Assembly (NCBI GenBank): GCA_951406725.2 | Contig: OX597818.1 | Span: 87,668,001 to 87,732,000 of the forward strand | Origin: Octopus vulgaris | Taxonomy: Eukaryota | DNA: 64,000 nucleotides | Direction: 5' to 3' | Shown: positions 7,929 to 41,762 of the stretch, one piece after another | Layout of the letters: every line of letters starts with the position of its first letter | Position numbering within the stretch: position 1 is the stretch's first letter | The notes under the pieces: generated by a model | What the model saw: the letters and a program-made list of their open reading frames with translations, nothing else | The model's database searches: none | Told to the model about the DNA's origin: nothing | Position numbers and translations under genes: made by a program

Positions 7929-8344
7929 CACATATACACTGATCAAATTAGGTTAGGGAAATGTAGAATGGCGGAGAGATGTCGACCGGACCGTATTCTG
8001 TGCGCGTTGTGTGTTGGGAGATGAGCGAATGATTGAAATTATATGATATAATCTGAGATCGTTGTCAGATAATGGCGAAGAATTATCGAGGAATTTCATA
8101 GAACGTAAAAAAACGTAAAGCGACAGCGTTCATGCTTTTTCAACTAAAAAGCTTTACAAGGATTTCTATGATGACGTATAAGTTCATCGTTGCAAACAGC
8201 AGTGGTAACGTTGGAACAAAGGTGAATGTTCCGTTAGGTTTCAGTGATGAGTTTAAAAAATATAGTTCACAAAACAGTTCTATCTTCACATTATTTACAT
8301 TATTTACATTCGACGGATATTTTTCCTCATCTTGTTTGTTGTTA

Positions 8345-8388
8345 ACACAACGTTTTGGCTGATATACCCTTCAGCCTTCTTCAGGTGT
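8345..8388 (-). ncRNA. Type I minimal hammerhead ribozyme (G12A-mutated copy)
   Basis: acac CTGAAGA a ggctg-loop-cagcc AAAA cg TT gtgt. Confidence 0.6.
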
Positions 8389-8441
8389 CTTGGGAAAATT
8401 TCGAAACTGGGTTCTCATTCCTAAAATATTTTCGATGTTAA

Positions 8442-8508
<67 letters not shown>

Positions 8509-8685
8509 GTTATTGTTGTTGTTGTTGTTGTTGTTCGGGTCACTGGAATTGAATATGCCCACGGGCATATGGCGTAGTGGTTAAGAGCGCGGGCTACTAA
8601 CCCCAAGATTACAAGTTCGATTCCAAGCAGTGACCTGAAAAACAACAACTACAATAAAAAAAAATAAAAAAAAATAATAATAATA

Positions 8686-8738
<53 letters not shown>

Positions 8739-9292
8739 TGCCCTGATGCAGTACGAGGCAGTGGCTCTCATGGCTTCTGATCTTTACTGATTGGAAGTGT
8801 TATCATGTACATTGTTTTGTCTTGGTATAAAAGATAGGCTACAGCAAATATTCTGCTCAATTCCACAGATTTGCTTGTCAGTTGTTTGACTTAACCAGTT
8901 GACCAAGTCCCTTAGTGGCTGACGATATGTGCATCTCTGATCAGGACTTGAAGTAGTGGGGGAGCATCATAGCCATGTGTTGAGAGGGATTCTTTGGGGT
9001 TTGAATAATTCACCTCTGGAAACATGGGTGTTTCGTTCAACATCCTTAAACAACCCTTATTCAGGGACCTTTTGAGCGGGATGGGTTACTCGACCAGAAG
9101 AAAATTCTAACTGGACCCCACATGCAAGGTCATATGCTGTTTATCTTGACATTAGATCACCATGTTGCACACAGATGGTTGTGATGCATGTGCCTGGTGT
9201 ACCCTTATCAGACAGGTAGTCATGATGGGTATACTGGGCTTCGTAAATTTTACCCCAGTATCAATTTGATGGCATCCACTGTTCTCTCACTC
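8739..9292 (+). mobile_element. ~550-bp retroposon (LINE 3' end/SINE-like) with (AAT)n tail
   Basis: High similarity to 41300-41762; both end ctctcactc(aat)n. Confidence 0.75.
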
Positions 9293-9353
<61 letters not shown>

Positions 9354-9409
9354 GCATCGAAAAATACCTTAGGAATGAGAACCCAGGTTCGAAATTTAAT
9401 TTTCCCAAG

Positions 9410-9453
9410 ACAGCTGAAAAAGGCTGGAGGGTATATCAGCCGAAACGTTGAGT
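9410..9453 (+). ncRNA. Type I minimal hammerhead ribozyme (degenerate copy)
   Basis: acag CTGAAAA a ggctg-loop-cagcc GAAA cg TT gagt; consensus with the 8345 copy is canonical. Confidence 0.55.
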
Positions 9454-9728
9454 TAACAAACAAGATGAGGACAATATCCGTCGAATGTAAATAATGTAAA
9501 TAGTGTACATAATTCCTCATCTCCTAAATATAGAACTGTAGTTCTGTCTTCACTTCTAAAACCAAAATTCTTATTCTACAAACCAGCGTGTCTTTTAAGC
9601 AGACGCATAGGGAGTTGAGAGCAGTAGTCATATCTTCTTGAATTTATATCGTACCTTTCAAATAATGAAGGAAATAAGGAGAATGTAGTCTCTTGTATAC
9701 TTAGGATTAACAGCAAGTATAACTAACA

Positions 9729-9932
9729 GCGGCGAGCTGGCAGAAACGCGAGTACACGGGGCGAAATGTTTCGTCTGTTTTTATGTTCTGAATTCAAATT
9801 CCGCCGAGGTCGACTTTGCCTTTCATCCTTTCGGGGACGATAAATTAAGTACCAGTTGCGTACTCGAATAGATCTAATCGACAGGCTCCCTCCCCCAAAA
9901 TTTCGGGCCTTGTGCCTAGAGTAGAAAAGAAT
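9729..9932 (+). mobile_element. tRNA-derived SINE family 2
   Basis: ggcgagctggcagaa..ttcaaattccgccgaggtcgactttgcctttcatcctttcgggg. Confidence 0.8.
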
Positions 9933-28461: not shown

Positions 28462-29259
28462 CTTTTCTACTCTAGGTACAAGGCCCGAAATTTTGGGGGA
28501 GCGGGGGCAGTCAATTAGCTCGAACCCGGGAGGCAACTGGTACTTAATCTATCGACCCCGAAAAGATGAAAGGCAAAGTCGACCTCGGCGGAATTTGAAA
28601 TCAGAATGTAAAGACAGATGAAATACCTATTTCTTTACTACCCACAAGGGGCTAAACACAGAGAGGACAAACAAGGACAGACAAACGGATTAAGTCGATT
28701 ATATCGACCACAGTGCGTAACTGGTACTTATCTAATCGACCCCGAAAGGATGAAAGGCAAAGTCGACCTCGGCGGAATTCGAACTCAGAACGTAACGGCA
28801 GACGAAATACCGCTAAGCATTTCAACCGGCGTGCTAACAACGTTTATTTCTTTATTGCCCACAAGGGGCTAAACATAGACTGGAAAAACAAGGACAGACA
28901 AACGGGTTAAGTCGCTTACATCGACCACAATGCGTAACTGGTACTTAATTTATCGACCCCGAAAGGATGAAAGGCAAAGTCGACTGCGGCGGAATTTGAA
29001 CTCAGAACGTAGCAGCAGACGAAATATATATTTCATTACTACCCACTAAGGGCTAAACAGAGAGGACAAACAAGGACGGACAAACGGATTAAGTCGCTTA
29101 CATCGACCCCAGTGCATAACTGGTACTTATTTAATCGACCCCGAAATGATGAAAGGCAAAGTCGATCTCGGCGGAATTTGAATTCAGAACGTAACGGCAG
29201 ACGAAATACCCCTAAGCATTTCGCCCGGCGTGCTAACGCTTCTGCCAGTTCGCCGCCTT
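28462..29259 (-). mobile_element. SINE family 2 multimer (~4 tandem bodies)
   Basis: gaccccgaaa..gatgaaaggcaaagtcga recurs near 28555, 28738, 28955 and 29138. Confidence 0.85.
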
Positions 29260-41243: not shown

Positions 41244-41762
41244 TAAGGTCAAACAACTGACAAGCAAATCTGTGGTATTGAGTAGATTTTTTTTTTATAG
41301 AAGATGGACTACAGCAAATATTCTGCTCAATACCACAGATTTGTTTGTCAGTTGCTTGACCTTAACCAGTTGAGCATGTCCCTTAGTGGCTGACGATATG
41401 TGTATCACTGATCACGAGCAGAAGTAGTGGGGGAGCATCATAGCCATGTGTTGATAGGAATTCTTAGAAGTTTGGTAATTCACCTTTGGAAACATGGGTG
41501 GTTCGTTCAACATCCTTAAACAACCCTTATTCAAGGACCTTTTGAGCAGGATGTGCTACTCGACCAGCAGAAAATTCTAACTGGGTCCCACCTGCAAGGT
41601 CATGTGCTTTTTAACTTGATATGAGATCACCATGTCACGCACATATGGTTGTGATGCATGTGCCTAGTGTACGGGTAGTAGACGGGTAGTCATGATGAGT
41701 ATACTGGGCTTCGTATATTTTATCCCAGTGTCACTTTGAGGGCATGCACTGCTCTCTCACTC
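41244..41762 (+). mobile_element. (AAT)n-tailed retroposon (same family as 8739-9292) with short 5' inverted duplication
   Basis: 41244-41286 is the reverse complement of ~41322-41364. Confidence 0.75.

Follow-up and report, generated by a model that had tools for sequence, protein, structure and literature searches.

The window is a 64,000-nucleotide stretch of Octopus vulgaris DNA, from a genome of 2.8 Gb. The locus described here is a decayed head-to-head insertion of the end repeats (pLTRs) of an autonomous Penelope/Poseidon-type element. Two pLTR arms of opposite orientation form a unit at 8290-9539, bounded by a 14-bp target-site duplication (TSD) with one mismatch (Table 1). A first-pass annotation of the window had placed a chimeric SINE with an inverted copy at 8270-9545. 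The unit is real, its true limits are those given above, and the insertion at 8739-9292 had been missed. The tRNA-like head (~8563-8640), the (AAC/AAT)n spacer and the hammerhead tail (9410-9453) of that annotation are all present, with the head corrected to 8563-8638 and the hammerhead refined to 9409-9454. The inverted upstream copy is also present, with the end of the head and a hammerhead (8344-8389) as had been described, and it additionally carries head nucleotides 1-8 (8553-8560). Because the inverted arm includes these nucleotides, the junction forms an 18-bp palindrome centred at 8561-8562.

Table 1. Features of the locus, in window positions
Feature	Position	Strand	Remarks
Left target-site duplication	8276-8289	.	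14 bp, 1 mismatch with right copy
Inverted pLTR arm: head nt 1-8, head 3' end, (AAY)n spacer, hammerhead, short tail	8290-8560	-	tail copy 8290-8437 is 87% identical to direct tail (9355-9539)
Minimal type I hammerhead, inverted copy	8344-8389	-	core change G12A
Head-to-head junction, 18-bp palindrome, centre 8561-8562	8553-8570	.	inner part native to the PLE, directly upstream of the head
tRNA-Arg-like pLTR head; A box 8570-8580, B-box core 8615-8624; cloverleaf stems decayed	8563-8638	+	49/73 identity to genomic tRNA-Arg(TCG) in L265
(AAC/AAT)n spacer, first part	8639-8738	+
Separate 554-bp non-coding element with (AAT)n tail, later insertion in the spacer, outside the pLTR proper	8739-9292	+	47 matches across the window and the other loci analysed
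(AAT)n run: tail of the inserted element and remaining spacer	9293-9354	+
pLTR 3' part with long tail, 5' end of the PLE ORF	9355-9539	+	candidate ATG 9375-9377; frame broken here
Minimal type I hammerhead, direct copy	9409-9454	+	core G8A and stem-I changes
Right target-site duplication	9540-9553	.

Among the sampled genomic tRNA genes (n = 20, some isotypes absent), tRNA-Arg(TCG) is the best match to the head, with z = 8.3 against shuffles. The A and B boxes are of consensus type, whereas the cloverleaf stems are decayed. Both window hammerheads are mutated, and as noted in the first pass, they differ in their core mutations (G8A in the direct copy, G12A in the inverted copy) and their consensus is canonical. 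The family majority reads CUGAUGA...GAAA, with a conserved core and stems I and II. Copies are only ~6% diverged, the cleavage triplet is GUU, and N7 is the sole core position with a common variant of non-CpG type (T 69%, A 28%). The available text of PMC4209133 describes three features that recur here: an additional base following A9, a G10.1-C11.1 pair and a palindromic helix III. The family-majority sequence fits a minimal type I hammerhead, for which self-cleavage, as a dimer or with the help of protein, is a predicted function. Neither ARAGORN nor Rfam (gathering threshold and E <= 10) called a tRNA or a hammerhead in the head and hammerhead sequences, and free folding of the two gave neither the cloverleaf nor the catalytic fold unaided.

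The spacer of the direct arm is interrupted. The segment at 8739-9292 was considered as the body of a short element and rejected, as it is a separate insertion that recurs within the pLTR spacer at unrelated loci and also outside pLTRs (window 41296-41762). The 5' end of this 554-bp element is fixed and its tail is (AAT)n; it enters (AAT)n runs and is at times found in tandem (L145, L212, L215, L330, L332, L339). It may be a non-autonomous partner of a Dong/R4-type LINE. LINE 3' ends with an (AAT)n tail also occupy the pLTR spacer upstream of the tail and displace the head (L011, L097, L121, L135); these may belong to LINEs with a restriction-like endonuclease (Dong/R4), which they resemble. 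Another abundant SINE-like repeat is present at 9728-9870 and at 11 further sites in the window, including tandem arrays at 28628-29208.

The family is large. An exact hammerhead 27-mer occurs 2892 times in the genome, and with an exact-match share of 12/145 the number of arms is estimated at ~35,000 (21,000-66,000). A very rough estimate for heads is ~20,000 (852 matches, share 4/96), and a rough one for ORF ends is ~2,300 (772 exact matches, exact share 17/51). Head and tail occur together. Head-anchored loci carry a tail downstream in 24 of 30 cases and an inverted tail upstream in 20 of 30, and a head is present at 63 of the 89 tail-anchored loci. None of 20 unrelated tRNA-gene loci has the tail. 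The co-occurrence check proposed in the first pass has therefore ruled out a chance juxtaposition of the two parts. A tandem head-to-tail arrangement is rare among the 89 loci, and the window locus is an inverted pair.

Taken together, the head, the (AAY)n spacer and the hammerhead tail almost certainly constitute the pLTR of an autonomous Penelope/Poseidon-type element. At one tail locus (L013), a remnant of a Penelope-type RT/GIY-YIG reading frame ends just upstream of the head. At 28 loci found through the ORF end (self and one duplicate removed), the head follows the RT/GIY-YIG stop in 25, and the tail is likewise present in 25. The order of the unit is head, (AAY)n, hammerhead and one ORF of ~840 codons (RT and GIY-YIG). 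The ORF start overlaps the hammerhead, and the stop lies ~30 nt before the next head. A consensus built by script gave a 2658-nt unit (2.66 kb) with a single 838-codon frame that starts upstream of the hammerhead. Comparing the tail with autonomous PLE pLTRs, another proposal of the first pass, identified it as part of such a pLTR that codes for the N-terminus of the ORF. The tail continues straight into the N-terminus in the full-length copy L211. In L225, which begins at head +4 and continues into the ORF, the translated tail aligns to the N-terminus of a 55% identical homolog (P0003, score 136). L233 is a true tandem.

The encoded protein was characterized by domain and homology searches. 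RVT_1 matched at E = 6e-8, and among 7990 proteins scored, 2735 homologs had E <= 1e-30; P0001-P0022 are 55-68% identical. A GIY-YIG-like motif is visible at the C-terminus, without Pfam detection; three of the 120 homologs listed carry PF01541, which we take to be the GIY-YIG domain. The N-terminal peptide motif, searched as a simple pattern, occurs in one of the 120 homologs listed. A search of PDB sequences returned weak RT matches only, and no relatives were found in viral contigs. In organisms B, D and E, contigs span the transition from the ORF end to the head, a result that concerns presence only. A Zn-finger linker between RT and EN, which the available text of PMC8557442 describes as present in Neptune and Nematis, is absent by inspection. 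By every structural feature tested the element is an EN+ Penelope-like element (PLE), an assignment that is made on structure.

Other Penelope-related sequences were observed during this analysis. A second, young PLE family (L302-L307, L309, L310) has open frames of 784-863 codons, a pyrimidine-rich 3' region and a Neptune-like cysteine cluster before the endonuclease; it served as a control only. A headless tandem derivative of ~290 nt consists of the tail and the next 121 nt of the ORF (L316, L328, L329, L339, L340; contig C29). Its ORF part is 96-98% identical to the consensus, and judged by sequence the derivative is a retrozyme-like offshoot of the same PLE. Penelope-like ORFs in contigs of prokaryotic genome bins (L341-L368) are probably eukaryotic contamination.

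The 5' ends of the copies suggest where the RNA of the element begins. Breakpoints were assigned by hand at 89 unbiased loci from one contig. The 24 loci ending within the spacer or tail, in some cases because of later insertions, were excluded from the hazard count. The other 65 reach the head; seven stop inside it and 58 reach its start. At this point 39 of the 58 stop within -8 to +5, where the background truncation rate predicts 1.5, and the remaining 19 continue into the ORF end, as expected for priming in the last pLTR. Only one copy (L225/L311) is contiguous from the head start into the ORF. The pile-up of copy starts implies an RNA 5' end at the head, and the rough genome-wide estimates, with far more heads than ORF ends, agree with it. 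Some templates must have started elsewhere, since the L233 sequence passes through the head of a 5' pLTR.

A tRNA-derived promoter motif at the start of the pLTR, together with the start of most short copies at the same place, makes it likely that the element is read by Pol III. The tRNA-Arg-like head with its A and B boxes would then probably act as an internal Pol III promoter, with the RNA starting at the head. The sense strand of the 2658-nt unit contains no T4 run. Synonymous-codon shuffles contain 2.9 (P = 0.03) and base shuffles 4.7 (P = 0.008), in a modest test that was post hoc and used the script-built consensus. The T4 runs of single copies are private, at <= 10% per site, and reflect decay. 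All 16 control PLE ORFs, two of them from one contig and one from the second, young PLE family of the same genome, have T4 runs (2-34 each), and seven controls of similar T content, a duplicate aside, have 2-8. In a related organism, raw RNA reads map to the two strands of the family to the same extent, depth follows the order tail > head > ORF end >> ORF start, and read starts do not accumulate at the head. Such a pattern resembles read-through of genomic copies and weighs neither for nor against Pol III. A protein-coding element read by Pol III would be unusual, and its uncapped RNA would require cap-independent translation. PLE promoters, as described in the available text of PMC2377424 and PMC3846280, are of the Pol II type.

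The same pLTR could instead be transcribed by Pol II or by read-through, a reading that we consider rather unlikely. On this view, a tRNA or SINE would once have inserted into the 3' UTR, with the tRNA head as its remnant, and the sharp 5' end would reflect either Pol II initiation at the edge of the pLTR or cleavage at the head by an RNase P-like activity. Such a start would agree with the location of PLE promoters in pLTRs (PMC6765202 and PMC2377424, as far as their available text goes) and with several junctions that lie exactly at head +1, and L233 is an instance of tandem read-through. Some 30 nt upstream of the head, a TATA-like heptamer lies across the ORF stop; it was seen at L061-L090, and TBP bound at this distance could direct a start near -6. 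However, this motif lies outside the copied part in short copies, and the T4-free unit is left unexplained. Moreover, consensus A and B boxes combined with decayed cloverleaf stems suit a promoter better than an RNase P substrate.

SINEs have been described as parasites of LINEs, and the first-pass annotation had proposed a SINE mobilised by Penelope machinery. The Penelope machinery is upheld by the TSDs and one-sided tails reported below, and the independent SINE is not, given the head inside the PLE and the variable sites. A comparison of 72 head-start arms with 34 ORF-linked arms found no difference at any of 12 variable sites (p >= 0.145). Both variant haplotypes are present in the short and ORF-linked classes at similar frequencies, and divergence is 5.5% and 6.8%. 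Short copies often retain native bases upstream of the head. Since short copies have no private variants and both head and tail lie within the PLE, the 'SINE' is the pLTR of the PLE; it is not a SINE by membership because it has no lineage separate from the PLE. The short copies derive from the PLE's own source copies, and they may behave in a SINE-like manner, as Pol III RNA copied by the PLE enzyme. It is very unlikely, and largely refuted, that they are an independent SINE lineage composed of a tRNA head and a borrowed hammerhead tail, with its own source copies, and mobilised in trans by Penelope enzymes. Such a lineage would fit the large excess of short head-start copies over ORF copies and their possession of the A and B boxes and the size of a SINE, but not a head that belongs to the autonomous element, haplotypes and divergence shared by both classes, or the retention of bases native to the PLE.

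The footprint of insertion was examined in 54 inverted pairs, a position-ordered sample from one contig. A TSD of ~8-16 bp is present in 30 of them, compared with 2 of 300 mismatched controls, and 50 of the 54 have a long tail on one arm only. The lack of TSDs that had been predicted in the first pass is thus refuted, both in this sample and by the 14-bp duplication at the locus. The inverted arm, the one-sided tail and the TSD show that Penelope machinery moves the head and tail as a unit. The same footprint is described for Pen2a_Av in PMC3846280 and for PLEs generally in PMC8557442, in the text available of each. The arm that reaches less far 5' bears the longer tail in 26 of 40 informative pairs. 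Since fold-back on one cDNA is unable to copy sequence that is absent from the first cDNA, these pairs rule out simple fold-back as the general origin of the inverted arm. We infer that the arm results from two separately primed cDNAs (twin priming), in line with PAc, which extends both strands and uses two internal start sites according to the available text of PMC11167929. As an alternative to two cDNAs, PMC3846280 proposes, in its available text, self-priming on an antisense template, which may also account for the arm. It is highly improbable that the RNA has no fixed 5' end and that the head is merely a hot spot, with cDNAs made on a long RNA folding back or annealing at the short palindrome native to the sequence just upstream: 10 of the 39 head-start junctions are palindromic, as is the window junction, and palindromes at inverted junctions are known in PLEs (available text of PMC3846280), but the other 29 junctions are not at the palindrome (by a simple rule with a few borderline cases) against 1.2 expected, and several are solo copies joined directly to unique flank.

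With an RNA that begins at the head, the following sequence of events can be proposed. Pol III would start a few bases upstream of the head and would meet no T4 terminator. The PLE protein would cut AT-rich DNA with a stagger of 10-14 nt, and reverse transcription would begin internally, at either of two tail sites. A start in the first pLTR of the RNA would run off at the RNA 5' end after ~280 nt and produce a SINE-sized copy, and a start in the last pLTR would produce 5'-truncated ORF copies. Two cDNAs, one primed at each break end, would join head to head and leave the inverted arm, the one-sided tail and the TSD. At the window locus, an (AAT)n-targeting element would later have entered the spacer.

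In its fullest form, this proposal describes an autonomous protein-coding retrotransposon whose whole length (2.66 kb) is transcribed by Pol III, with a tRNA promoter acquired by capture. Its ORF would have been cleared of Pol III terminators, and priming in the first pLTR would supply SINE-sized copies of its own. We offer it as a tentative possibility that the element could be of this kind, an extant intermediate stage in the origin of a SINE that depends on Penelope. If true, it would show how an autonomous element can itself give rise to a SINE-like family, and would suggest a possible origin for hammerhead-bearing Pol III repeats such as Sm-alpha. Without Pol III involvement, the element would be a PLE of the ordinary kind that carries a tRNA relic. 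With tens of thousands of copies, the family offers in its 5' ends a large natural data set on the RNA start of PLEs and on the formation of the inverted arm. The inverted pairs would be expected to form long hairpins inside host transcripts.

The octopus element shares properties with several known systems. One likeness of general type is to tRNA-derived SINEs, including the octopus families OR1/OR2/OK. Such SINEs are alike in a tRNA-Arg-like head with intact boxes, a size of ~280 nt and tens of thousands of copies. The family described here differs from them in that it has no separate lineage and no LINE-derived tail, and has internal RT start sites and inverted pairs instead. Sm-alpha and Sj-alpha of Schistosoma also combine a Pol III-type promoter with a hammerhead in a short retroposon, and in the available text of a review (PMC6765202) they are non-coding tandem repeats whose partner enzyme is unnamed. 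In the octopus, by contrast, the promoter motif and the hammerhead are parts of an autonomous element, and the insertions are mostly inverted pairs. Animal non-LTR retrozymes are similar in being short hammerhead sequences related to PLE pLTRs, with proposed use of the PLE enzyme, and they differ in being tandem repeats, whereas the octopus locus is an inverted pair (PMC7229834; bioRxiv 10.64898/2026.07.22.740005). In the available text of these two sources, neither 'Pol III' nor 'polymerase III' occurs, and tRNA appears only in connection with tRNA ligase or processing.

A small-RNA-derived Pol III promoter within a terminal repeat is found in the TRIMp3 elements Cassandra, Helenus and Ajax, which are non-autonomous LTR elements, whereas the octopus element is an autonomous PLE (PMC10886601, as far as its available text describes them). 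That text argues that the weak processivity of Pol III leaves the autonomous partners of TRIMp3 elements no option but Pol II. If the Pol III reading is true, the octopus PLE, with a tRNA-type promoter in its own pLTR and an ORF free of terminators, would contradict this argument. In the literature searched, no PLE was found whose pLTR is tRNA-derived; the family may be catalogued in Repbase, Dfam, SINEBase or the supplements of PMC13282606. The octopus repeat papers PMC13282606 and PMC8967140 name Penelope and SINEs only as classes in their available text.

The closest likeness in structure is to Poseidon_Ac of the green anole (PMC11167929) and Pen2a_Av of Adineta vaga (PMC3846280), as described in the available text of both. 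These share with the octopus element a single ORF of ~840 aa with RT and C-terminal GIY-YIG, a pLTR that includes the ORF start with the hammerhead overlapping it, and an inverted 5' pLTR with a one-sided tail of 30-40 bp, a TSD and a palindromic junction. PAc resembles the octopus element in that its tail consists of ORF sequence and its hammerhead lies across the ORF start (PMC11167929). Pen2a has a TATA/Inr motif, and the word tRNA is absent from the available text of PMC3846280. In contrast to Poseidon_Ac and Pen2a_Av, the octopus pLTR begins with a tRNA-derived head with A and B boxes, and its unit is free of T4 runs.
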